NCBI RefSeq assembly: GCF_963675165.1
Contig: NC_087384.1
Coordinates: 2,678,315 to 2,742,314 of the forward strand
Length of the DNA stretch: 64,000 nucleotides
Reading direction: 5' to 3'
Origin: Halichondria panicea
Lineage: Eukaryota
The notes under the pieces are model-generated. The model did not search any database. It saw only the letters and a program-made list of their open reading frames with translations, and was not told the origin of the DNA. The position numbers and the translations under genes were made by a program. Of the stretch, positions 4,511 to 59,500 are shown one piece after another; position 1 is the first letter of the stretch; the number at the start of each line of letters is the position of its first letter.

Positions 4511-5221
4511 AGCGCCATCTCAGACTGAACAGGTCCTAAAAAAGTGCCAACGGTTGCTGTATTAAAATGGCACTTATAAAAAGGCTACTTTTTGGCCTAT
4601 ACAATTATATGAATGCATTCCTCAGCTGTAACATAATTATCAAACATCTCTGCCTGAGTACCAAGAGACTGCACTAGCTAGACACTACACTAGCTGTAGC
4701 GCATCAAGCGCCACCATAATTAAGCGCCAGTGGGCTGAACGCAATTTTTGAGGTTCTAAAAGATGCGCCACTCACATAAGGAATTAATTTTTTCTGGCGC
4801 TGTGTATACATCGACTACAGTACTACTCCTATGGATACCGACTGTATATTGGTTTGTCTAAGAGACAGAAAGAGACAACTTGCCACATGTACTAGCACCA
4901 CGTACTCAAAATAAATCAGGATCAGACAGAGAATCAATCTCCGGCGGCGGTTAGAACACAATTATCAGAGTAAGACATCGTATACAGGGTTGCATACAGG
5001 ATTTTTACACACATGTATACAGTAATGATCATGTTGGAATTGTTCAATTTGTGCTATCTTATAATAGTACGTCCCTTCGTGCACCCGTTTATGAGAGTTG
5101 CATATTTTTTTCTCCCCCGTACTGATCCTCTCGTATGCTTGAGAAAGAGCCTTAACAGAGTGCGTTAGTAGTTGCAGGGGATTAACAGTCATGAGTATAT
5201 AGTGGCTACATGGTAGAATGA

Positions 5222-5330
5222 GAATTATAATACCGTATAGAGGGTAATTTTTGTGGGGCAAAATATTCGGGGTTTTCGTGGTTGAAGGTCTGACCACGAA
5301 TATTTTACCCACGAATGAAACGAAAAATCC
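5222..5330 (+). mobile_element. MITE family B copy (ccgtatagagggtaattttt... / ...ccacgaatattttaccc).
   Basis: Shares the CCGTATAGCGGGTAATTTTCG-type terminus and the internal CACGAA motifs with other family B copies. Confidence 0.55.
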
Positions 5331-5445
5331 TCAACCATTTTAATCGTTACGACGCAGTTCTCTGTAAACATTTTCAGCCACGGCCGTTATTCGAAAACAT
5401 TATATTGTCATTTGACAGCGTGCAGTGACTCGACAAGTACCGTAT

Positions 5446-5520
5446 AGCGGGTAATTTTCGGGGGACAAAATATTCGTGGTTCAGCAATATTGAGACATTT
5501 TGTGGGTAATATTTTCGTGG
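5446..5520 (+). mobile_element. MITE family B partial copy.
   Basis: accgtatagcgggtaattttcggggg... terminus. Confidence 0.5.
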
Positions 5521-5575
5521 TTGCTGCTTGGATTGTAGGTAAAGGTACTGTGTTATAGTACTATAGATCTATACT

Positions 5576-5803
5576 ACCGTATAGCGCTTGATTTTCGCGG
5601 ATTTTGTGGGTTAGAATTCTACACGAAAATTAAGTACTCGAAAATTTTTCTTTAATTAGAATTACCTGCTATAACATGCAAAGATTTAAAGGCGTGGCTT
5701 TCGGTAAGCTGTCATTCCGCGAACATTGTGCAATGAAATGGCTTTTAGAGGCCAATCCACGAAATATAAGTGCCTCGAAAATTTAGCGCTATACGGTATC
5801 AGT
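5576..5803 (+). mobile_element. MITE family B complete copy with TIR ccgtatagcgc ... gcgctatacgg.
   Basis: Both termini are present. The internal sequence is near-identical to the copy at 57721-57915 (aaaggcgtggctt.cggtaagc...cttttagaggcca.tccacg.aatataagtgcctc). Confidence 0.75.
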
Positions 5804-5977
5804 TCTATCAAGAGTTTACCAACTCTTGGTTCTATTTATATTTATAAAGTGTACATACAATTCCTCAATTCCCTTCCTTAAAAAGTATATGCAGTTAATT
5901 ATGTTTGTCTAGTGTGGGGTAATAGTTTGTTCATTGTGCTAAACTATCACTGTTGTCTTTAGAATTGCGAAAACAGG

Positions 5978-8787: not shown

Positions 8788-9340
8788 TTATGCCTCGGTG
8801 CGCATGCGCAAGCGAAGATACGATAGTGTGTTTGTGTGTCTGTGTGTGTGTGTAGACTGTTTCAGCTGCTCAAGGATCAAAGTAAGAGTTTTTATAGGCT
8901 TCTAGTCATATTTGTGGATTTGCAAAATAAAGCTTCGTTCTCGAGTTGAGTTTTGCTTACTTTGAATGCCATTGCAGCCTTTTCAGAAGAGTCCGTAGCA
9001 AAACTTGTTCGAGTGTTGCTACTCTACTTAGTAGTTAGCTCTGCACTAGAACGCTAGCTATTGGTAGCTGCAAGAGTGAGAAGAGAGCTGAGCTGCAAGG
9101 CTCTGCTGACTTGCAGCCATTACTTGAACTTTTGGCATCGATCGTTTTTAAACAATCATCGTCCTCGACGATTACCCACTCTTTGAGTTTCCCTGTGATT
9201 CTGGATTCTGCATGCAGTAAAATTAAAAATGTTCATCATGATAATTATAATCAATGTGTGTATAAAAGCTAGCTATTAGTAATTTTATGTTATATGTAGC
9301 TTTGGCACCTCCACCGAGGTATCAGCACCCGCGGTGCTTT
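8788..9340 (+). mobile_element. MITE family A complete copy (about 550 bp). TIR atgcctcggtg ... caccgaggtatc, with an internal GCGCATGCGC palindrome and a short (TG)n.
   Basis: Full-length alignment by eye to copies at 32343-32975 and 48327-48872; the termini are inverted complements. Confidence 0.8.
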
Positions 9341-9672
9341 CATTAAACTAGTTCCTATTATTCAAATTGTAAAAAGGCTGCCTATTCCAGAATATTTGGC
9401 TCAGGTATATATATATACTCAGTGCTCAAATCAGTTACCATGCAGGAATAGGAGAGAAGCTATAGCAAATTGAAGTCACTAGAAAGAAGACTGAGTTATT
9501 TGAGCCAAAGATGCAAATCAAATCTTATTTGCAGCACTATACTGCAAATAAGATTTGATTTGCATCTTTGTATATTGCATATTGCACCCGTGCGCTCATG
9601 CAACAAGTTAACTAGTATACTGAGGGTGGAGCTATACTCAGGAATGTAACTCCAAAATTGTATAAAATGTGA

Positions 9673-13140: not shown

Positions 13141-13996
13141 CTCCAAGTAGAGACTTTTTTTTCAGTATTAATCAGCTCATTTTTCCGTATTTAATGATGA
13201 TTTTCAGTACAAAACATGGAAATGAGATGAAATGCTGTTTAGTGGCTTTGTAATTGCCCCGCCCCTTCAATAAAGGGGCGTGACAAGCGAGACTACGAGA
13301 GCCTAAAGACAGGAATTATGTCCATGAACTTTGACCTTATAATTAAATTTTTGTCTGTGATGTGGGGGCGGCTCAAGAAGCACTAGCCTCGATTCCAGGC
13401 CGCTTGAACAAGGCCTTGTTCAAGCGGCCTGGAATCGAGGCTAAAGAAGCACATGAAACTTTAAATCTTCAATTAATACTAGATCTAGTCTAGTGCAGAT
13501 CCATACAGGGTATTAAAATTAATGTGCTCATGCATCCCAACATGTTGTAAGACTATTGAAATGAATACAGCAAACATTGTTTTATTGCACAAAAAACAAT
13601 CATTATTGTGAAAGAACATTCTGCCGTTTGTGTTCGCCTCTTCACTTATGAGGCAGAGCAGTCTGATTTGTCCTATAGCCTCGGTCCCAAGGACAATGCT
13701 ACAATAGCCCCAGTAGAACTCCACTCAAAATTTGAATATGTAGATCTACTCAGTGTAGCACAAGCCACACAGTAATGATGCACAGGAACATGGGTATTAT
13801 TCTTTCACAATAATGATTGTTTTTTGTGCAATAAAACAATGTTTGCTGTATTCATTTCAATAGTCTTACAACATGTTGGGATGCATGAGCACATTAATTT
13901 TAATACCCTGTATGGATCTGCACTAGATCTAGTATTAATTGAAGATTTAAATACGGAAAAATGAGCTGATTAATACTGAAAAAAAAAGTCTCTACT
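13141..13996. mobile_element. Composite foldback element. Outer arms are 13141-13200 / 13930-13996 and inner arms 13468-13625 / 13790-13945. A family D 60-bp perfect palindrome is nested at 13384-13443.
   Basis: Arms are reverse complements on direct reading. The nested palindrome is tagcctcgattccaggccgcttgaacaaggccttgttcaagcggcctggaatcgaggcta. Confidence 0.75.
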
Positions 13997-14004
13997 TGGA
14001 GGCT

Positions 14005-14300
14005 CTGTAACTTGTTCAGAATCACCGAGTGTTGCTACTCTACTTAGTAGTTAGCTCTCAGTCTGCACTAGAACACTAGCTATTGGTAGCTGCAAGAGTG
14101 AGAAGAGATTGGTAGCTGCAAGAGTGAGAAGAGAGCTGCAAGGCTTGCAGCTCTCTTCTGAAAAGGCTGCAATGGCATTCCAAGTCAGCAAAACCAGGCA
14201 TAACTCAAGAACGAAGCTTTATTTTGCAAATCCACAAATAGCATGCCAAGAAAACATGACTAGAAGCCTATAGAAACTCTTACTTGCACCTCATATAACA
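14005..14300 (-). mobile_element. MITE family A partial or rearranged copy.
   Basis: Contains gagtgttgctactctacttagtagttagctct...gctgcaagagtgagaagag and the 5' end agaaactcttacttgcac. Confidence 0.6.
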
Positions 14301-14591
14301 GCCAGGCACCCAGGTCCCAAATGAACAGTTTGTGCACTCTCAACAAGGCCACATCTGTATAAAGGCCAAAACATTGCTCCCCAAAGGTGTCCGTTATAAA
14401 GAGGTTCCAATGTACTGAACTCATTGTATTTTGCGTAGATCTACATGTAATGTTATAATGTTTAGACCTTGCCATGTCTTGAACATACATTGCAAAATCT
14501 GTTTTGTATGTTTTAAGCGCACGAGTCCTATAGGTACATTTTATACTTTCATTGCGGTAACAATATCATTATAAAATATATTTCCCCCCTA

Positions 14592-14822
14592 GCTATTGGT
14601 AGCTGCAAGAGTGAGAAGAGAGCTCTGCAAGGCTCTTTTACCATTATTTAGACTTTGGCATCCTTAGCAACAATCACCATGGATCATTTCCCACACTTTG
14701 TGATTCTGCGCAGGCAGCAAAATTAATGAATTATCATGTGTGTATATTTATAACAACAATGATGTTTATGTTATGTATGTTAGGCACACCCACCGATCAG
14801 CACCCGTGGTGCTATTGTTCTC
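14592..14822 (+). mobile_element. MITE family A partial copy (3' half).
   Basis: ctagctattggtagctgcaagagtgagaagagagct ... cacccaccgatcagcacccgtggtgct. Confidence 0.6.
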
Positions 14823-15424
14823 ATAAAATGAATTATAAGACATAGATATATAAATACAGCACACAAGATTTAATTCTCTCAGTGTTGTATTGCTGAATTC
14901 AGAATATTCACCTTCTTAGACGTCGTTATGCAATACTTAATGGTCTTTACCAAAATAGACATCGGGTTTTCCGATGTTGGCTCGATTCCATTCAATCATA
15001 AAGCTGCTTCCGGAGGAATTCTCAGCTATATCTCTACGTGAATTGGAGATACTAAAAGAGTATAGTCAGTGAAATTCAATAACCCCAAAATTAAGCCCCT
15101 GAAAATTTCGGCAATGCCTATATCAGTTTGGCCAGGCAAAGTAGATTGTAGTTTCTCATCACATGATTTTTCATGGTGAGACTATGAGTTATGCTGACAG
15201 TGCAACACTTTATCTATACACAAACAAATTTTTACATTATCAGTATACTCAGTGTAATAATTTTGTGTTGTGTAACCGTAGATAAACAAAAAGTATATTG
15301 TATTTCGTTTGTATGCCCACGCCGGTATACAATGGGTGTGGCTCATTAATTTGGGCCACACCCCATGAATAATGAACTTTGGGTTTTGGGGGGAAGGCTA
15401 AAAGCCATGAAGGGGGTGAGATAT

Positions 15425-15800
15425 TGGGTGCCGTTTGTGTCAAAATATTAATGACAAAACCACAAGGTTTGGGTATTTAGTAAAGAACTGAGGGTATTTA
15501 GTAAATGACCGAGGGTATTACAACTGAGGGTATTCATTTTAGTAAACAACTGAGAGTATTATAACTTAGGGTATTTGGAAAGGACTGAGAGTATTATTAT
15601 GTAAATGACTGAGGATATTTAGTAAAACGACTGACAGTATTTAGTAATTGACTGAGTGTATTAGGTCTATTAATTAGTAGATTCTTTAGAGTATAATTAT
15701 TATGTTCACTATACCCTCAGTCATTAATTTACTAAACACCCTCAGTCAGTTGCTAAATACCACCAAAACCTTGTGTTTTTATCATCGACACAAACGCACC
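15425..15800. mobile_element. Foldback element with an internal minisatellite: about 10 tandem 18-20 bp units (actgagggtatt.agtaaa), flanked by inverted arms (gtgtcaaaatattaatgacaaaaccacaaggtttgg / ccaaaaccttgtgtttttatcatcgacac).
   Basis: Direct read of the tandem units and the inverted flanks. Confidence 0.65.
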
Positions 15801-16693
15801 CATAATGAGAAACTACTGATCTACTCTTGGCCTTAGCCTCGATTCCAGCCAATTAAAAATACGTTATGGATTTGGTTGCTTTGTAAATTCCATCAAGACA
15901 TGACTGGTCAATAAGGACTCCTACATGCCTCTCCAGAGCCACTGCTCCCTTTGCTGACAACACCAACGTCAAACGTCACCAGCTCTGGAGTCTGGACGAC
16001 CATGGCTCTTCAGAGTTATGGGAATTTGTACGTGATAAGGTGGAACTCGGTTCAATGCCCTCATTATGGGCATTGTACTTACGAATTGTGTTTACCGTTG
16101 CATTTGAAATGCAAAATTTTGGGCGACATTTTGGGTGAAGCTCGAAGCATAATATAAGGTGCCAGAGTCTATATAACGGTTACCAGTCAATTTTTGTGCA
16201 TGAGCTTAATTATAACCATAATCATAATGATATTCTTTCTCATGGACATAATTATACCATCAGTTTACACGTACACGTATAGTTAGTTGATGAATTGTCA
16301 ACACACGTACACGTAATATAGTTAGTTGATGAATTGTCAACATCAATCTTGGTTGCTAAGATACTACATGTACTATGTAATCAATTATTAATGATCCCAT
16401 TTTATGCATGTGACGCTAACATATACCCATTAGCAATGGCATGACTGTTATGTTAACATAGTGTCAGTTGCATACACCACCGGCTTTACCAGATCAGCCA
16501 TACAAATGTGTTGTCTCCCACGTGCATAACTTTTCTAAACACTATACAAGCTAGTCTCATGTTAACAACGCTAAACAAAATAAAACTATTTATGTATATA
16601 CACAGCCTACAATTTATATAGCTTAGTCCTAAGCTAACTATAGTCAGTGTGCTCTGGTCTCTGTGTAAAATGTCTGAGAGAAGCTGCATGTGA

Positions 16694-17740
16694 TTACAGA
16701 GTTTTGATTGGTGTATGGGGAATTTCATTAAATTGTGAGAATTCAATTTCTTCTTTTGTTGAATTTTCTCTTGGACTGTTAGGGTATGATTCTTCTTCTT
16801 GTGCTGTTCGATCACACACAAAGAAGACGAGTGAGAACACAGAAATCACAATGAACGATAGGGCAGTAAATCCAAGGCGTACACTACCATTGCTGGTGCG
16901 GTTACAGGCGAGAGCATTAGCAGTTGTGTTGGCTGCATAAGTGTCACACCCAAATGCACAGTCAAGAGGCTGTCGATTGTCGGCAAGAAGGTACAAGGGA
17001 AGGCAGCATACTAATACAATCAGGCCAATGGTTACAAGGCCTGTAAAGACTCTTTCACTGTATTCATTGCTTGTAAGAGAGTACAAAAAGTAGCTAACTT
17101 CAGCAAATATTCCAGTGAGTACACAAACAGCAAGAAATGCTGAGCTGCTCGTAATATCTGACCTGTTGCAGAACTCTCTCGACTGTATCATAACTACAAT
17201 AGCCGAATAGAGTGTGTCTAATTTCACAAATATGGTAATCATGTCAATAGCTGAGAACCAATCAGGACTTTTTTTGGTTGTCGTCAGATTTAGTTTTTCC
17301 TTTCGCTTGAGGACCTTCAAAAACTGCTTACTGATGAAGGGAACCATTTGGAAGATTATGAGAGCCACACCTAGACAAAAAGAAGCAGCTCTACGGTTGT
17401 TGTTAACGCACTCTTCATCACAATTGAGTACCGTGCTATATTTATTGAGTAAGTTGGAAATGTTGTCACCATAGAAGTAAAGCAAAGCTCCAATTGTTTG
17501 AACAAAGGACGTTAGAAAGGTTGTGTAGTGACACTTAAAAATGCAAAGATAAACAAAATGGACAATTGTGAGAAGGCCGAAAAAAAGAAAGGCGACAAGT
17601 ACGAACAAAACAAGAGCTGCTGTAGCACTATCCAGATGATCACCATTCGTGAGTGTGATGATTTCTTGAATGATCGTGTTGAGCATGTCAGCTAGCAAAA
17701 GTATAACAAAAAGCCCTCTACTTTCAGGAATTGGTTTAGT
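16694..17740 (-). CDS. Novel multi-pass TM protein, paralog 1, main exon. The acceptor is at 17741-17743. A 6-nt first coding micro-exon (ATGGGG) lies at 17887-17892 with a gtaagg donor.
   Basis: ORF translation (T)KPIPESRGLFVILLLADMLNT...CLPLYLLADNRQPLDCAFGCDTYAANTTANALACN.... It contains 5-6 hydrophobic helices and is about 50% identical to paralog 2. Confidence 0.6.
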   Translation of the reverse strand, partial: TKPIPESRGLFVILLLADMLNTIIQEIITLTNGDHLDSATAALVLFVLVAFLFFGLLTIVHFVYLCIFKCHYTTFLTSFVQTIGALLYFYGDNISNLLNKYSTVLNCDEECVNNNRRAASFCLGVALIIFQMVPFISKQFLKVLKRKEKLNLTTTKKSPDWFSAIDMITIFVKLDTLYSAIVVMIQSREFCNRSDITSSSAFLAVCVLTGIFAEVSYFLYSLTSNEYSERVFTGLVTIGLIVLVCCLPLYLLADNRQPLDCAFGCDTYAANTTANALACNRTSNGSVRLGFTALSFIVISVFSLVFFVCDRTAQEEESYPNSPRENSTKEEIEFSQFNEIPHTPIKTL

Positions 17741-17886
17741 CTGTGGGTATAATAATTATACATTGTCACAGTATTATTGAAGTTGCATGCATTGCACACA
17801 ACTTTTACAATCATGATTTTGAATAAATGCACGTTTTTACAAATTCCTCTATGCACAATAATCTACTTAATCATGCTATACCTTAC

Positions 17887-17892
17887 CCCCAT
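17887..17892 (-). CDS. Putative exon 1 (Met-Gly) of TM paralog 1.
   Basis: ACAAAATGGGG|gtaaggtat. The equivalent ATGGGAAAG|gtaaaat lies upstream of paralog 2, and both splice in frame to a conserved KPIPESRGLF start of exon 2. Confidence 0.4.
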
Positions 17893-18417
17893 TTTGTAAG
17901 TGACTTCAAGTTCTTCTTGTAGCTTAGAAAACTGCTTGACACTTTTGTTTATGTGCGGTATTAATTAAGTTCCATGATGCAATGCAATGTTTACTCAGAT
18001 CTAGCCCCACCCATTCAAACCATATTCAACCAGTTAGAATTTCATCATGCCAGCCTGATGGGATAATAATTATTTAATTTTGCAGATCAGTACATTTATA
18101 ACTGTTAGCAAAGCTTGCAATGTGACTTAGCTAGATAGAGCAAGTTTTCAGATTAACAAATAAGAAAGATATCATGGACTGACTAAGCACATGGTCACAA
18201 TGACCTAAAATACATAACACAAGAAAGTTCTAGAATGTTCCTAAACATAGATATGACATCATTATCAACTAAGTGTGCCTCTAACAATAACTTATATAGA
18301 TCTACTTTTACATGTGTGTAGATTATACTGCAAAAAAGGTAGCTGCATGCTCTACTGCATCATCACAACTAATAAGGCAAACCTGGCCGCTTAGCTAGCT
18401 ACACGTATGGCCTAAGA

Positions 18418-19542
18418 TTAAGTCACAAGAGGGTTGATGTCATCCAACTTCTCTTTCAGTGTCTCCCCAAAATCATTAACAGCTCCACCCACATCGATAT
18501 CAGTGACTGTATCTTTAATTGCTGCACCAACATCAGGAAGATCAATCTCCTCCAGTTTATATTTCATTGCTGAGCCAATTTCGGTGAATTCGTCTCTTGC
18601 TTTTTGGTTAAGGATGAAATACACAATAGGGATTGTGGCGATAAAAATTAGTGACACACTGGTAAATCCTAGCCTCACGCTCTCGTTTACTACGTTGTTA
18701 CAAGCAATAGCATTAGCAGTTGTATTAAACGTGTCTGAGAACGTGTCACACCCAAAGGCACAGTCCAGAGGCTGACGGTTATCAGCAAGAAGGTACAGGG
18801 GAAGGCAAATCATCATGGAGATGAGACCAAATGTCACTAATGTCGAGTAAAGCTTGCTGTTATGTTTGTTGGTTGCCCATGCGTTCAAGAAATATACCAC
18901 TTCTGAAAAAATCCCAATGAATATGCAGACTAGCAGAAAGGTTGTGCTCGCGGCAATGTCAGTGTTGCTGCAATACTCAGTGGTCTGCACCATGCCTATT
19001 ATAGCAGAGTACAGTGTATTAATCTTCACAAACATCGTTATCATGTCAATAGCAGCAAACCAATCAGGAATTTTCTTTGTGACAACTGAGGTTGGTTTCC
19101 GCTTCAGTTTGAGCAGCTTCAATACATTCTTTGTAACAGGAGGAACAATATTAAAAATAATAAGAGCAATTCCCAGGGAAAAAGAAGAAATTATGCGGCT
19201 GTTCACAGTACATACTGAACCACATCCAACATCAACACCGTAGTTGTCAACTAAATCATTTATGTTGTTTCCGTAGAAGAAGAACAATGCACCAATAGTT
19301 TGGATAGTAGACGTTATGAATGTTATGCGGTGCCCTCTAAGAAAGCATAGGTATAAAAAATGAACAATAGCCAACGATCCAAAGAAAACAACAGCAATCA
19401 CCCCAAAAACCGTAAAAGCAGCAATAGCGCTCTCACCCCGACTGCCCTTGGCCAGCAAGATGATCTCTTGTACGAGAGTGTTGAGCATGTCAGCTAGCAA
19501 CAGGACAACAAAAAGTCCCCTACTTTCTGGGATTGGCTTGGA
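18418..19542 (-). CDS. Novel multi-pass TM protein, paralog 2, main exon. The acceptor cag is at 19543-19545. A 9-nt first coding micro-exon (ATGGGAAAG) lies at 19674-19682.
   Basis: Translation (S)KPIPESRGLFVVLLLADMLNT...CLPLYLLADNRQPLDCAFGCDTFSDTFNTTANAIACN.... It is a tandem duplicate in the same orientation, and its acidic C-terminal tail carries DxxxxID-type repeats. Confidence 0.6.
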   Translation of the reverse strand, partial: SKPIPESRGLFVVLLLADMLNTLVQEIILLAKGSRGESAIAAFTVFGVIAVVFFGSLAIVHFLYLCFLRGHRITFITSTIQTIGALFFFYGNNINDLVDNYGVDVGCGSVCTVNSRIISSFSLGIALIIFNIVPPVTKNVLKLLKLKRKPTSVVTKKIPDWFAAIDMITMFVKINTLYSAIIGMVQTTEYCSNTDIAASTTFLLVCIFIGIFSEVVYFLNAWATNKHNSKLYSTLVTFGLISMMICLPLYLLADNRQPLDCAFGCDTFSDTFNTTANAIACNNVVNESVRLGFTSVSLIFIATIPIVYFILNQKARDEFTEIGSAMKYKLEEIDLPDVGAAIKDTVTDIDVGGAVNDFGETLKEKLDDINPLVT

Positions 19543-23230: not shown

Positions 23231-26200
23231 CTGTGTGAACAGCAATGAGTGGAAAATGGTACATGGTGAACGTCATGCAATAGTCTAAGAATAAAACAGT
23301 CAGCCATTTTATAAGCCGTCTACGTTAAAATCTATATACGATTCATTTCAGAGGCCTAGCTTACATTGAGTATCTTCTAATTTATCGGACAGTTCTTCTA
23401 ATTAGCCCGGACGCTTTTCTGGGCAATTTTCATTGTTCTAATACAACGGACACTCTGGTGCTTTAATTTACTAAATATCCGGACAATACCTTGAAAAGTT
23501 GAGATACATTCCAAGCAACGTAGCTTTTATATAGCCAGCAAGAGTATTGCAAGTTAGATAGCTTTGAGTTTTAGGATAGTTACATTAGTGCAACTAGTTA
23601 TTCAGTCGCACACTGTTCTAGCTAGCTTGCATGCAGCTGCATGCTTGTTCTAATTATTCCGGACACTTCGCGTGCTCTATATATATCTATAAAGATCTGT
23701 TCCCCGGACAATTTCCAAAAAATTATGTTTTACTGTCCGATAAATAATTAGAACATACGTTATATACCCCTTAAATACACATCCCGATCTATGGAAATGT
23801 AACAAAATACATTGTACCGCATTGTCCGTATAGCAGGTAATTTTCGTTGGTACACATTTTCACATGAATTAAATTATTATGTATTCTAAATAATTGTACA
23901 GCTCAAGATAGTGACATAGATACTATTGCAGAAGAATAATTTTTCGCAGTTTTAATTTTGGGATACAACACGAACATTTCCACCATACGAAATTAACCAT
24001 ACGCTATACAGTAAACTGTCTGTGTTACCGTTAATATATCAGACACTTCTAATTACCCTGGACATTTTTTCTGGGAAATGTTCATTGTTATAATACAGCG
24101 GATACTCGTACTTACATTAGTCTAAATATCCAGACTATAGGCTACCTTGAAAAGTTGATAGCTTTGAGGATTAACTACTCAGTCGCACACTGACTTAGCT
24201 AGCTCGCATGCATTTGCATGCTTGTCTAATTATTCCGGACACTTGGCGTGCTCTATAAACATCTGTTCCAATTACACCCGACAATTTCCTTATTTTTTGC
24301 TGTTTGATAAATTAAAACATTATACGGTTCTTACTTTCTCTTCGTTGGGGAGGTCATCTTGCTTGAGTGGAAACACCCGAACAAACTTGAAACTCTCTGT
24401 CACAACGTAGAATGGCTTGTTAAGCGTTTTGGCCATTACAGCAATCTGATACGTCCCGATCTATGGAAATGTAACAAAAAATTATATAGCGCCAAATTTC
24501 CGATGCGCATCACTTATGCTTTTCACAGATTGATTTGAACCTCGAAAAATATGCACCTCAAACTTTGAATTCGTTGTATACATGTACTTCTGGTAGTGTA
24601 AAAAGGCTATCCTCGAAAAAGAGCAATCTGCAAAATCCTCGAAAGTTTGGCACTATACATAATAGTTATAATAATTATAACTATTATAAGAGTGCAGTAG
24701 TAAGAGTGTTCAACTGTTACATTGTAGCTAGAGCTGGACACAATAGACAGCACTGACGACACTACTAGACAACCAAGTTTATTCTATGCTTCAGCTGTCT
24801 GTTTTGCTGTCTGTTTTAACTGATAATGAAAGCACCGCGAGTGCTGATGCCTCGAAAACTATACACACATTATATCATGATGAACATTTTTAATTTTGCT
24901 GCATGCGGTAGAAATCCAGAGTCCAGGAATCCCAGGGAAACTCAAAGAGTGGGTAATGATCGATGATGATTGTTGTTAAAAACGATTGATGCCACTAAAA
25001 TTAATGGCTGGATCAGAGCCTTGCAGCTCTCTTCTCACTCTTGCAACTACCAATAGCTAGCGTTCTAGTGCAGAGCTAACTACTAAGTTGAGTAGCAACA
25101 CTCGGTGAACAAGTTTTGCTACGTACTCTTCTGAAAGGTTGCTAGGCATAACTCGAGAATGAAGCATTATTTTACAAATCCACAAATACCAATCACACAT
25201 TATATCATGATGAACATTTTTAATTTTGCTGCATGCGGTAGAAATCCAGAGTCCAGGAATCCCAGGGAAACTCAAAGAGTGGGTAATGATCGATGATGAT
25301 TGTTGTTAAAAACGATTGATGCCACTAAAATTAATGGCTGGATCAGAGCCTTGCAGCTCTCTTCTCACTCTTGCAACTACCAATAGCTAGCGTTCTAGTG
25401 CAGAGCTAACTACTAAGTTGAGTAGCAACACTCGGTGAACAAGTTTTGCTACGTACTCTTCTGAAAGGTTGCTAGGCATAACTCGAGAATGAAGCATTAT
25501 TTTACAAATCCACAAATACCAATCCAAGAAAACATGACTAGAAGCCTATAGAAACTCTTGCACTTCATTGATCCTTGAGCAGCTGTAACAGTCTACACAC
25601 ATGCACACACAGACACACAAACACACTACAGTAACTGTATACCTCGCTTGCGCATGCGCACCGAGGTATAATAAGCCAAGCAACAACCAATGCAAAGAGA
25701 AAGATTGATGGGCGTGGCCTGCAAACGTGAAGAAAGCCAATACAAAGAACGTTGAAAGCACAGCGCTTGAACCAAGGAAACTCCTGAGCATCTGTAAGAG
25801 ACTGTGTGTTGTTAACTATTAGCCTCGGTCCAAAGTGTTCGATTAGAGAAAAACCAGCCTGGTCGAAAAAAGGCCTGGTGTCTATTGCATGGGTGATAGC
25901 ATAGATAGTAGAGGAAGGGGATTGGAAACGGGATCACGTGAGCTTATGCTTGCATAGCCTCGATCCCAGGCCGCACTTCCCACTAGGGAAGTGGGCCTGG
26001 TATCGACTGCTTGCGCATGCGCTAATATCCCCCCGGTATCTGGGGGCTTTGGATAACATCGTTTATGCTCAGTAAAACTATGACATCACAACGAAAGGAA
26101 GTGGATTGAAGGAAGTAGATAGAAAGTTCGATTGAAGGTTTCTAGCCCATCGGATAGCATTCTCTGATAGCTACCCTTAGCCTGCTATGTTAACAAAAGA

Positions 26201-29200
26201 CTCACAGCCTGCAACAGTGTGGATGACGATCGTCTGAAAGGAGTGACGGCTGATAAGAGCCTATACGGACAGGCCACGCCCATTTAACACTAACTTTGGT
26301 GAAAGTCTACTATACTACTGCTACTGATTCTATCAGAAGAAAATAGCAGTACAACAAACCTACACAACTCTGTCTCTAGCTAGCTAGCTATATAGCTCTG
26401 TGTATGACTTTTAGGATATTTTCTCGGGGGAAAAAATCCAATAATTTGGCGCATGCGCAAGCAGTCGATAGCAGGCCTTCTTTCAAAGGCCGGTGAAGGA
26501 GGCTAATGCTTGCAACGTAAGGCCTTTGGACAGTGCGTGCAGCAACCAATAGACACCTTGAGGTGTGATTTTACTGGTTTTAAGGTCAAGAGAAGCTTTG
26601 GAAAAAAAGCAAATGAGAGGATGCTAGGTAAATAAATGTATGAATAGCCCTAAAATGTGTCTTGAGGTATGCCTATAGGTACAAAATTAAACATTATTAC
26701 TAGCTTTGGTAGCACACAAAATTTGAAGATTTACAACACTTAAGCTTCTCTTTTTATTTGTGGGGTAAGAACTGACTTATGAAATGCAAATGAATGAATG
26801 GTCACAGTAGTAGTACATGATGGTATTTTATTGCTTCAGCTATATATTGGAAGCGGGAATATCATACTTCTTGAGTTATTGGCCGATTTGTTGATTTCCA
26901 CTAGACATCTTTGCCATCTAATGCGCATGCTGACTGCAGAGGAAAAGTGATGACCTTTTTTTTAAGGTAAAATTCCATGTTATTCAGCGTCTGCTCTGGC
27001 CCTGCTCAACTGATTTGAGCCCTGCCCTTCCCAAAATCCTGGCTACCACAAAGTCATAGAATATGCCCGTAATACTTAAGGTTACGATGCAGTGTTCGCC
27101 CACGCAGTAAGTAAATCAAGCTTGTCTTGACTGTATACACTAGTCGTCATTTTATATGCTAGATATTGCACGCTCTTTGCCAGTAAGGCAATTATCTATT
27201 TAAAGGAGGAAAGGGGGAGGGCGGCTCGAAACAATTTTTTGAACAGTCATCGAGTTAGCTCGTGTAGAAGTTGAAAAATATGGAAAAATAGCCGACTAGC
27301 TAGTAAACTATGGCATTTTTCTTCAGTTAGTAGATAGATAGGACTATTCGAGCTGCCCTCAGGAATATCATAAACTGCTGGTAGGTCACTGTTTAGTCCT
27401 TGTTAGAGTCTTTCTTTGTCTAATATTTGACGAATAAAATCGGCAATGACCACACGATCTTTGTGGTAAATTTTTTGCCATCTAGTTAGCGTACTGATAG
27501 CTAGCTAGCAAGCGCTGTAATAGTTACTTATGAGTAGTGCAACAGTATAGACACATAAAATAATAGAAACAATATTTTCCTTTCTCATAAAACAAAAATA
27601 AAAACTCATGATTAATTCATGAGCAAACACGTACTCTCAGGTATATTAAGGACTGGGACCTTCAATTATTGCTGAATCAGCTAAAACGCAGCCACGCCCA
27701 CGATTTTTAATATGTTTTGTGTGTAAAAATTTTGTGCAGCTACTTATCTTTTTTAGTTCTAAAAACGGTGTTCTAAACCTTCCTTTTAGCTCTTAATTCT
27801 TAGTGTAGTAGGTAGTTCAAAGGCTTAAGCAGACATATCCGCTGGGAGAGAGCATCATGTTCTATTTAGAGTAAGTTATTAGCCTATAAAAATAAAAATG
27901 TCACTTATTGTCAGCTGTAAGACTAAGTTTTGTGCAAAATCTCACCTTTGGCCAAAGAAGTGGCTCTCTCCCAGCAGATATGTCTGCTTAAGCCTTTGAA
28001 CTACCTACTACACTAAGAATTAAGAGCTAAAAGGAAGGTTTAGAACACCGTTTTTAGAACTAAAAAAGATCAGTAGCTGCACAAAATTTTTACACACAAA
28101 ACATATTAAAAATCGTGGGTGTGGCTGCGTTTTAGCTGATTCAGCAATAATTGAAGGTCCCAGTCCTTAATATACCTGAGCTGCATCGTAACCTTAATTT
28201 CCATGACTAAAGCTGTGGTTTATGCCATCTATTGCATTGGTCAAGAAGGCTTGCACACTAGTATAAGAAGAGAAGAGTGTCGAACCGATACCGGCCTCTA
28301 CACAAAAATGTCAAGTAACATGACTTGTACGTGATGAAGCATTGTAAACTTTCTAGTAATCTCCCAGTAAATGTTAACTGTGACGTTTTTAGGGGTGTGG
28401 TAATTGATGAATGATATCTGATTCTAGTTAGTCGTTCGCATTCAACGTTTAGAACTGCTCACTGCAATAATAGACCTCTCAGTGACTAATCGGATTGCAC
28501 CATTTGTATTCTAAAATATGCGACCGTCACCTACCGTACACTTAAATTCAGGGATTGTCAATCAATACATAGTGTAACTAAGTACTGTCTTACATGAAGC
28601 ACACACATTTTCGTGATGGGTTTTTTCCTTGTAATGGTCGATCACGTGATTGTGCTACTATATAAGTACTTGATTAATGTGCGGCTGCAAGTGGATTATA
28701 CGTAATTGTAATAACACACCTTGTTGATGATTCCTCCACTCTCAGCCACACCCTCTGCCCCCACGACTACCACGTCTACTTTCTCCATTAAAAACCTAAC
28801 ACAGTAACAACAATGTTTATCACTTAGTAATAATGCATTTACGTACAGAATACACATACCAATTTGGGTCCCTTTCACTAATGAACATCGAAATACTACG
28901 AATCATAAAGTACTACAAATAACCCTGTAATTTAGATACCTTGCTCCCGCCAAAGATTGCAAAAATCAATACTTGCACGTACTGCTTAAAAGCAAGGCAA
29001 AACAGTCCCTCTAGCTGCTGCATGCACATGTGTAGTAAATGGTAGATACCTCTACACACTACAAACCCTATTTCTTTGACTTGTATTCAGTACCCCCTGA
29101 GCTTGCAAATATATAAGCCACATTAAAAGTTTTGGTATTTTTTTCCTACATCATCACCTACGCATGCCGCAACTCAGGAGGCACAGCACTCACCCCACAG

Positions 29201-39494: not shown

Positions 39495-50212
<10,718 letters not shown>

Positions 50213-56500: not shown

Positions 56501-59500
56501 AGGTGAGCTTCATTACATGTCCTCAGGTGCTGGCTAGGCTGCCATTGACTAATTCATTTGTGGGATGGCGGGCTCCTATACATGTACTTCACTGGCTGTG
56601 TATAATCAATTTTGCTTTTTCTGTGTTTCTATTATTTTGTGGAAGGCATTTTTAATGCATGTACTATTTGAGTAATGTTTTAAACTATTGCACGTTTCTT
56701 TTGTTTGTGCGTACATGTACAATATACAAGACACACTTATCCACTTGTAGGATGTGAGTTTGACACTGACTGACGTCACAGTGAGCTGGTCCACCACTGC
56801 CCATCGCTGCATCTTCAGGGCCCTCACCTGTCTACAGGAGAACACCACCATGCTGAGAGGTCAGCCTCCTTTCATATACATGATTGTACATGTAGTACGT
56901 GTCAATAATACATACCCTAAATATATGTATTATTGTTGCGATATAAGATTTGATCTTGATCACGTTCTTGTGTGCAAGCTGGTCTGTACGTGAAGAATGC
57001 TTTTGTGCTGTTTTTAATACAGCTACGACGTCCCACCCGATCTGCTACTGGTGCTTGTTAAGTATTAATTACCTTCGTATGACTTTTCGCTGCTGCAGGT
57101 GTTCTTGGAATAGCCCCCACTCCTTCCCCTCGGACAGCTAAAGGGGAGATGGTTGCCGTGGGTGATGTGATGCAGGGTTACCTGCAGAAACTACCAGTGT
57201 CTCTGAATGTCCGTGTTAACAAGGCCAACTGTGTGGGACAGCTGGACAAGAGGATAAGGTGTGTGTGGGGGAGGGGCAGTGGTGGGAAGGGGATACTATT
57301 CATGTGCATACATTGTACCTTATGCTCACTTATGATTTCTCCACATACTTTTAGTGTGCTATAATATTATGCTTAAAATGTGCATAAAAGCTTGTCTCAA
57401 CATAGTCTCAAAATTAATACATAGCTGCTACATGAAGGTGTACAATTTAAGTAACATACAATCCAAAGAGTGTGTACTTCACTCTCTACCCCCTCCCTGC
57501 AGAGTGTATATGTCTCTCACCAACATCCAGTCCAGTGTGAATGGCGGTGTCTTTATGACCAGCTCTCAAGAGATCGCGGTCACTTTCGACCACGCCAGAA
57601 TTATGACTCTGTTGGAGTTCATTACTCGATTCCCTCAGCAGGAGGGCAAGATGGTGGAAGAGAGGAAGGGACTCAAATACCAGCTGCAACAGCAGAGCAA
57701 CTCTGTCCTGTGAGTGATGCCCTTATACCGTATAGCGCGAAATGTTCGAGGGGCTTAATTTTCGCTGGGTCCACGAAATTGATTAGCTGCTTTAATATTA
57801 AAGGCGTGGCTTCCGGTAAGCAGTCAACCCACAAAGATTATGCAACGAAATGCTTTTAGAGGCCATTCCACGGAATATAAGTGCCTCAAAAATTTCGCAG
57901 AATACGGTACTTCAGTAAAATAATATTGCTTTTAGCTAGGGAACTAAAAAGTGTGTAAAGTGTGTGTGTGGTTTTGCAGTAAATGGTGTGGATTGTTCGG
58001 GTGATTGATCAATGCCATTGTGGTGTGAGTTATGTGAGCTGTAATGTAGTATTGTCAATTAAGGTAGCAAGCGTGTAATAAGAGTCATACAGTCCCTTCC
58101 GTTTTTTCTGTGTTCACGTAGCCTCAGTGTAAATTTGGTAAAGGTTGTTACGATATAAAACACATAATATATAGCTTGATACCGAGTGTTGTATGAAAAA
58201 CTACCCGAGTTACGTGAGAGACACTGCATTATGGTAGTTGTCATGTGACAGGGTGTGGCAATGATGGTGTTCCACGTGATAGGAGCTCACACCACTGAGT
58301 GTGTGTGTGCACTGATCTGTAGCAATCAATACTGAGCCACTACTCAGGAGCAGCGAAATTCCGCTTTAATTAATTTTTGCTTGTATCAAATTTGTATTGA
58401 AGTTTCTAGTACATGTATGACTCGTGTAATCAAGTTGAAGGTTGTTTACGTACATGTATAATTTATACAGATGTATGTATATGTATACTCATAAGTATCA
58501 ATTTTGGACCACACTACCACAGGTGGTTGCAGGCGTATCGACTGGACCTCATCTTTCCTCACGACTACAACTTCTCTCTCGCCTATGACAAGGTACAAGC
58601 CTACTTGGCAGAATTTTAGAATTTTAGATTAAGTTTTATCTCATCACTTCCCATACAGCTGTACATTGTTCATTGTATCTCCCGTGCAGCTGACTAATGT
58701 GAGGAAGTTTCTCCAGAAGCTTCACTCTGGTTCCCCTGGTAACAGTGACCCCTCCATACGGTACCTTCTCCCTGACGTCTCCGCAGAGTGTGAGGATATT
58801 GTGCTACAAGTCAGCGATGACCCATTCGAGATGAAGCTTAGAGCTAACTACGAGGTGGGGCTGGTATCAATGGGGTGTGGGAGAGGGTGTGGCTAGTATT
58901 GGTATATATATATATATATATAGGTAATAATTACTGGCAGAACTGTGCATGAAAGTGGGGAATTGAGCTAGGATACTCCTTCAGTTGCAAGCTAGTGGGT
59001 TAGGGTTACTAGGGTAGGGCACGTGTACGGTTACAGGCAATTCGGTATAATATGTCAGTTGTATGGATTAGGAATTTACATGTATAATGCATGCACATAT
59101 GGATCATCTTGATTTGGCTTATACATGTAGCTAACTATTCCCATCCACCTCCTTTTCTAACCCCACCCCCTCCAGCTGTTGTGTGACGAGGCAAAGGAGA
59201 AGAGCAAAAGACGAGAAGCGTTTGAGGAGAAACTGAGCCAAGTCCGACAGGAACAGGGCGTCACTGCCGTGTCAGGTGACTACACTCATCCCCATATAAT
59301 CCTTGTAGTGTTAATTGTAGTAGTTGCATGTACACAGTGCATACTGTAAGTGTCCCTCCATTAACTGTTTACGTAAATCAGAACTGCTAATGCTTAGCTG
59401 TGTGGAGTAAAGGCTTGAAAGAAATTTATTCTGAATGCTCAAAATCTCAAGTTGCAAAATCTGCCTTTTAAGAATATATACTGTAATGTACTAACACGTG

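Follow-up and report, generated by a model that had tools for sequence, protein, structure and literature searches.

Foldback (FB) elements of Drosophila are flanked by a 9-bp TSD. In other families of DNA transposons, the TSD is TA (Tc1/mariner/pogo), TWA (PIF) or AT within an A/AT/T target (ISL2EU) (PMC4482050). CMC-type MITEs with 2-bp TSDs have also been described, and these have the ends CAC...GTG (PMC6004678). At the level of RNA, the demosponge Amphimedon reportedly has endo-siRNAs and loci of the hpRNA type, and unique endo-siRNA clusters were under-represented in introns in a Drosophila benchmark (PMC6211395).

The locus described here is a hairpin in an intron of EIF2B1, within a 64-kb stretch of DNA from the sponge Halichondria panicea that was analysed as a whole (the window). 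The hairpin resembles MITEs in its length (545 bp, below the MITE limit of about 800 bp), its AT-rich (36.5% GC) and non-coding sequence, its TIRs and short TSD, its occurrence in more than one genomic copy, its intronic and polymorphic position, and its nesting in and by other TEs. Unlike in the usual MITEs, the TIRs, 218 bp on each side, account for 80% of the element, and the copies found were two full ones and one fragment. The locus shares with Drosophila hpRNA loci and inverted Alu pairs a long near-perfect intramolecular duplex, in this case one expected within the Pol II transcript of its host gene; it differs from them in being a segregating TE insertion, known here from its sequence and predicted fold. 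We observed the structure of the element, its lack of coding capacity, a precise presence/absence difference that includes a TSD, and another copy at an unrelated locus that ends in the same way. Overall, the locus very probably represents a non-autonomous DNA transposon, foldback-like and with long TIRs, that inserted on one haplotype into an older TTAA-flanked MITE in the EIF2B1 intron.

Structure and predicted fold of the hairpin

The initial annotation had described a young, long and near-perfect inverted repeat at 27640-28172, with arms ending at 27855 and 27958 on the side of the loop and about two mismatches between them. A repeat finder recovered this structure as two arms that are 99% complementary (Table 1), the longest inverted repeat across the window. 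The location was confirmed and the arm ends were revised: the arms reach 3-8 nt further at their outer ends and stop 2-5 nt earlier on the loop side. The arms are indeed near-perfect, with three mismatches rather than two (27696/28120, 27745/28071 and 27840/27976). The motif TTAA occurs 10 nt inward from both termini (27646-27649 and 28167-28170). The element had no coding capacity: ORFs starting inside it reach at most 33 aa, and frames without a stop reach at most 48 aa.

Table 1. Features of the hairpin element, its host element and gene, and the elements nested in its second copy. Positions are those of the window unless L012, the contig carrying the second copy, is named.
Feature	Position	Strand	Description
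Hairpin element, complete (long-TIR MITE/foldback-like)	27636..28180	.	Termini 5'-CTCAGGTATATTAAGG...CCTTAATATACCTGAG-3'; from inverted repeat, empty allele and second copy
Left arm	27636..27853	.	218 nt; inverted repeat
Loop/spacer	27854..27962	.	109 nt; non-palindromic; identical in second genomic copy
Right arm	27963..28180	.	218 nt; inverted repeat
Left TSD copy, CT	27634..27635	.	Single CT in empty allele, ...caaacacgtaCTgcatcgtaacc...
Right TSD copy, CT	28181..28182	.	From empty-allele comparison
E1, older TTAA-flanked MITE	27076..28198	.	576 bp without hairpin; TIR TTAAGGTTACGATGCAGT; right TIR split by hairpin
E2, second member of outer TTAA-flanked family	41861..42478	.	TIRs of 41 nt, TTAAGGTTACGGTCAACCGTTTGCTCAT...; interior unrelated; hairpin absent
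EIF2B1 exon upstream of intron	28717..28800	-	Human eIF2B-alpha aa 183-210; called ORF with Pfam IF-2B
EIF2B1 exon downstream of intron	24341..24460	-	Human eIF2B-alpha aa 210-249; 70% identity; E = 1.8e-13
Element nested at left terminus of second copy	L012 4525-5111		~590 bp; TAGCCTC...GAGGCTA ends
MITE nested in loop of second copy			268 bp; 34-nt TIRs; TAA duplication
Pogo-like element nested at right terminus of second copy	L012 5896-8910		3 kb; at a TA; encodes DDE_1 transposase

Folding energies were computed for the 545-nt RNA in the EIF2B1 sense, a calculation that the initial annotation had proposed. The predicted fold had an energy of -408 kcal/mol, as compared to -120 ± 6 kcal/mol in 100 shuffled sequences (z = -46.6). 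On the EIF2B1 pre-mRNA strand, one of the three mismatches becomes a G-U pair, which leaves two true mismatches in the stem.

The initial annotation had also likened the structure to that of active foldback transposons. Like Drosophila FB elements, the element consists mostly of very long inverted arms, from which a hairpin or cruciform could form. However, Tandem Repeats Finder, applied to positions 27000-28300, detected no tandem subrepeats in the arms, which are unique sequence; the TSD is of 2 bp, not 9 bp; and the total size, 545 bp, is MITE-like and much smaller than that of FB elements. We therefore consider it very unlikely that the hairpin belongs to the classical Drosophila-type FB family. 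What stands of the comparison is the long-arm architecture of a foldback-type transposon.

The window contains another hairpin, with arms of 157 nt at 13460-13616 and 13800-13951 that are 97% complementary (128 nt perfectly so) and separated by a 183-nt spacer. Its ends are TTTAAATCTTCAATTAATAC... and both haplotypes carry it. This element was considered as a relative of the hairpin in the EIF2B1 intron, and self-BLAST of the window revealed no sequence relationship between the two.

A heterozygous insertion in an EIF2B1 intron

The gene context was established by tblastn using human eIF2B-alpha, with the alignments judged on their own E-values. The minus-strand exons of EIF2B1 span from about 30720 down to 23096 (E down to 2e-13). 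Because consecutive exons lie at 28800-28717 and 24460-24341, the hairpin sits inside a 4.25-kb intron, about 540 nt in from the intron start on the minus strand, in agreement with the intronic location given in the initial annotation. By virtue of this position, the hairpin would be co-transcribed with the gene. Two single-exon proteins encoded in the window exactly matched the H. panicea RefSeq entries XP_064392532.1, which is TRIM71-like, and XP_064392742.1.

To reach other assemblies of the locus, public assemblies were queried for the TRIM71-like protein and for the variants in its 90% cluster. The ENA metagenome assembly ERZ26868619, whose metaMDBG-style contig names point to HiFi data, supplied contigs of both haplotypes. 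Contig ctg13896_58.94x, with a coverage of about 59x, was 100% identical to window positions 10323-32401 and contained the hairpin. Contig ctg15175_153.03x represented the other haplotype: it was about 99% identical on either side of the insertion, aligned to window positions 32721-28181 and then passed straight to 27635-25194 with a 2-bp overlap, the hairpin being absent. The terminal 22-mer of the hairpin was seen solely in loci from ctg13896, and ctg15175_153.03x lacked it. The two contigs probably derive from one read set, such that they are independent as products of different assemblers and as different haplotypes, but do not represent different individuals. A short-read contig covering the neighbouring exon (L011) stopped about 260 bp short of the insertion site, and the other TRIM71-like contigs, L003-L008, likewise ended before it.

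Comparison of the two alleles defined the insertion to the nucleotide. The empty site reads ...ACGTA-CT-GCATCG..., with a single CT (in full, ...acgtaCTgcatcg... / ...catgagcaaacacgtaCTgcatcgtaaccttaa...). The filled site reads ...acgtaCT[CTCAGGTATATTAAGG...CCTTAATATACCTGAG]CTgcatcg..., that is, CT[CTCAGG...CCTGAG]CT. What is missing from the empty haplotype is exactly the 545-bp element plus 2 bp, and the TSD, verified against the empty allele, is the dinucleotide CT. The insertion is thus heterozygous and polymorphic in the sequenced sample, one haplotype being filled and the other having an intact empty site. The initial annotation had proposed a search for TSDs and for presence or absence in other assemblies; it yielded this precise polymorphism with a 2-bp TSD, as well as a second genomic copy elsewhere. 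The polymorphism between haplotypes also supports the youth ascribed to the hairpin. Absence from independent assemblies, named in the initial annotation as evidence against the structure, was encountered solely as a real allelic difference and not as a collapsed palindrome.

Long palindromes are a known class of artefact, and one metagenome contig, ctg15175_153.03x, did not contain the hairpin. A chimeric palindromic read or a mis-join of haplotypes is nevertheless an extremely improbable source of the hairpin: the identical sequence was present on a separately assembled contig at about 59x; the hairpin-free contig had a clean empty site with one TSD copy, flanking SNPs and no collapsed arm; the centre of the hairpin is a non-palindromic spacer of 109 nt; and a second copy was found on another contig.

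The heterozygous insertion interrupts E1, a MITE present in both haplotypes (575/576 identical). The TIR of E1 is a perfect 18 nt, TTAAGGTTACGATGCAGT. Its left copy occupies 27076-27093, and the complementary right copy is cut by the hairpin into 27633-27635 and 28183-28198, 13-15 nt from the right end. In the empty allele, this right TIR is restored (18/18). The empty allele is therefore the ancestral state, from which the filled one was derived by insertion of the hairpin. The larger foldback that the initial annotation drew around the hairpin corresponds to E1: an outer inverted repeat exists, but it is short, and the structure is better described as a short-TIR, TTAA-flanked MITE that was hit by the hairpin than as a foldback. 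Similarly, the terminal motif noted as recurring in an element at 41866-42480 does recur, at 41861-41888 and 42451-42478; it is the TIR of the outer family (E1 and E2) and is not tied to the hairpin.

At its right end, E1 has 4 extra nt (ACGT/GTAC) with respect to its left TIR, at 27630-27633. These lie beside the hairpin insertion site in both haplotypes and may be an old excision footprint. In the vicinity of E2, an ORF at 42697-43587 contains a coding repeat in four tandem units (42712-43188), each about 105-132 nt long and specifying a zinc-finger-like CxxC...CxxC unit. This ORF is upstream of the ORF at 43815-44756, the putative PARP-domain part of that gene.

The hairpin-free haplotype also contained a 4.1-kb inversion (window 13947-18077 versus 15361-19518 of its locus, L002). 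The inverted segment includes one of two tandem paralogous membrane-protein genes, and its breakpoints are in two 7-bp motifs of inverted orientation, TTAAATA at 13947-13953 and TATTTAA at 18071-18077. On the left, the breakpoint adjoins the right end of the unrelated hairpin at 13460-13951. Over the right breakpoint, three contigs from other samples (L003, L007 and L008) were colinear with the window.

Second copy and identity of the transposon

Further copies were sought through a protein collection, using stop-free translations of the hairpin arms and loop as queries. One match, P0011, led to a third contig of ERZ26868619, ctg15336_105.42x (L012), which contains a full copy of the hairpin. 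Its flanks are unrelated to E1 and have AA on either side. The copy has the same left terminus as that of the window, CTCAGGTATATTA, at 4512-4524, and the right end ATACACTGAG (...CTGAG) at 8911-8920; its arms are at 5117-5321 and 5700-5897. Once the elements nested in it were removed, it aligned end to end with the window copy. The loops were identical, and the differences comprised two substitutions, a deletion of 12 bp and, within the last 10 nt of the right terminus, two 1-nt indels, for an identity of about 99.6% at aligned bases. Since the two copies have the same termini and an identical loop on different contigs and in different flanks, the whole hairpin is the mobile unit. Moreover, the arm mismatch at 27840/27976 is common to both copies, indicating that both descend as complete hairpins from one hairpin-shaped source and that the hairpin was not formed twice.

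These data also bear on an in situ origin, in which a break, repaired by folding back or by template switching, would have given rise to a local inverted duplication, with no transposon. Although the 2-bp homology at the junctions is also typical of end-joining repair, such an origin is highly improbable given a copy with the same ends, loop and one arm mismatch in unrelated flanks, and given that neither the arms nor the loop had a nearby template in the window.

A more distant relative was found at the end of a short contig (L013) in the NCBI assembly GCA_022076545.1. This 109-bp homologue of the arm is 78% identical, and the likeness begins only from ATATTAAGGAC inward. Sensitive self-BLAST detected no further copies of the hairpin within the window. 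The JGI metagenomes, a collection that does not include the H. panicea genome, gave 0 matches each to the terminal 21-mer and to the core conserved between species, and the GTDB genomes, which likewise do not include it, gave 0 matches to the hairpin. A profile search with pseudo-peptides of the arms returned no matches. In total, these indirect searches, made through pseudo-ORF proteins and in collections without the H. panicea genome, identified two full copies at unrelated loci and one diverged fragment.

The L012 copy is interrupted by three other transposons (Table 1). That is, three independent TEs inserted within 545 bp of a copy that has diverged little (L012 4512-8920). Such nesting implies that TEs have recently been very active or else that transposons prefer this palindromic target.

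Relatives of the nested elements occur in the window. The TAGCCTC...GAGGCTA ends of the element at L012 4525-5111 recur in a perfect 60-bp palindrome at 13384-13443, TAGCCTCGATTCCAGGCCGCTTGAACAAGG/CCTTGTTCAAGCGGCCTGGAATCGAGGCTA, which has the appearance of a MITE of which just the two TIRs are left. The 3-kb element at L012 5896-8910 belongs to a pogo-like family with TIRs TA/CCGTATAGCG... and TA duplications, and encodes a 485-aa DDE_1 (PF03184) protein. Short non-autonomous derivatives of this family are present in the window at 5231-5798, 5438-5798, 40516-40850 and 57726-57909.

The duplications flanking the two copies of the hairpin, CT in the window and AA in L012, distinguish it from several described families. 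Elements of the Tc1/mariner/pogo type duplicate TA, as does the local pogo-like family, whose TIRs, TACCGTATAGCG, are also unlike those of the hairpin. ISL2EU elements duplicate AT, whereas the hairpin duplicated CT within ACGTA-CT-GCAT. These duplications therefore exclude Tc1/mariner/pogo, ISL2EU, PIF and TTAA-specific families. A 2-bp TSD is shared with CMC/Mirage-type elements, but the latter end in CAC...GTG and the hairpin in CTCAG...CTGAG. Overall, a 2-bp, sequence-unspecific TSD, CTCAG...CTGAG ends and 218-bp TIRs matched none of the superfamilies checked (TA, AT, TTAA and CAC...GTG). As the TSD is not TA, AT or TTAA, and as no transposase or autonomous partner with the hairpin termini was found in the window and fetched loci, we left the element without a superfamily. 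It is mildly unusual in combining TIRs of great length with a 2-bp TSD other than TA.

Several other assignments were considered, and were rejected or judged less probable. The boundary at the empty site is CT rather than TTAA, which contradicts a TTAA-specific identity, whether piggyBac or other. A TTAA element in the 24-bp palindrome CTCAGGTATA-TTAA-TATACCTGAG was disfavoured, as no such palindrome occurs elsewhere in the window and the boundary at the empty site is CTCAG/CTGAG, although the L013 relative, alike only from ATATTAAGGAC inward, tempers this judgement. A 3-bp TSD, either CWG or the C/TNA/G of NuwaII (PMC4482050), does not fit, as the empty site has no CTNAG and the 3-bp flanks differ. 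Finally, a sequence at 9400-9422, CTCAGGTATATATATATACTCAG, was considered as fused termini or a footprint; its ends are direct (CTCAG...CTCAG), not inverted.

The findings indicate a recent insertion of the hairpin into the right terminal repeat of E1, with duplication of the target CT. We infer that the element was mobilized in trans by a putative transposase that would bind the CTCAGG... termini and make 2-bp staggered cuts in the target. With two sites, the CT and AA duplications could instead represent repair microhomology; the identical ends at the two loci favour a transposase.

Implications for RNA and for transposon activity

In the carrier haplotype, the EIF2B1 pre-mRNA would contain a near-perfect dsRNA stem of 218 bp within an intron. 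Dicer or ADAR could act on such a stem incidentally, with no RNA gene under selection, and a role in producing endo-siRNAs, as suggested by the initial annotation, is plausible.

A stronger reading is that the hairpin is a functional hpRNA/endo-siRNA or giant-miRNA locus, transcribed in the EIF2B1 intron and diced to regulate targets or to silence its family. The length of the stem on the pre-mRNA strand and its scarcity of mismatches, its residence in an intron of a housekeeping gene, and the occurrence of hpRNA-type loci and endo-siRNAs in Amphimedon (PMC6211395) are consistent with this reading. By contrast, the hairpin is absent from the other haplotype and is mobile and multi-copy, and so is not a conserved gene. 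In addition, no Rfam 15 family scored above threshold, the best being MIR4416 with 23.3 bits against a gathering score of 70, and introns were poor in unique endo-siRNA clusters in the Drosophila benchmark (PMC6211395). A functional RNA locus of this kind is accordingly quite unlikely. Given its presence/absence polymorphism and its mobile, multi-copy nature, the hairpin is more likely to yield dsRNA incidentally than to serve an RNA function under selection.

As a mobile element, the hairpin bears on transposition in H. panicea. The co-occurrence of a filled and an empty allele in one sample points to very recent, probably ongoing, DNA-transposon activity, as does a sister copy that has already been struck by three transposons while retaining about 99.6% identity. 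The two alleles also constitute a natural pair, only one of which would give a housekeeping gene an intronic dsRNA stem of 218 bp, and in this pair dicing and editing in sponges could be investigated. We consider it possible, although unlikely, that the element belongs to an uncatalogued and currently active lineage of demosponge DNA transposons whose heterozygous copy may also feed 218-bp dsRNA into the RNAi machinery. Were this so, the locus would provide a natural system for watching the birth of an hpRNA or siRNA de novo from a segregating insertion. The hairpin is otherwise an ordinary repeat, to be masked in annotation, and represents neither a new gene nor a new mechanism.

Other structural differences between the haplotypes were apparent around the insertion. 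In the same EIF2B1 intron, positions 24850-25479 are occupied by a 330-bp tandem duplication, the units of which are 98% identical, whereas just one unit seems to be present in haplotype L002. The haplotypes are also separated by a further indel, of about 330 bp, upstream of the exon encoding the IF-2B domain.
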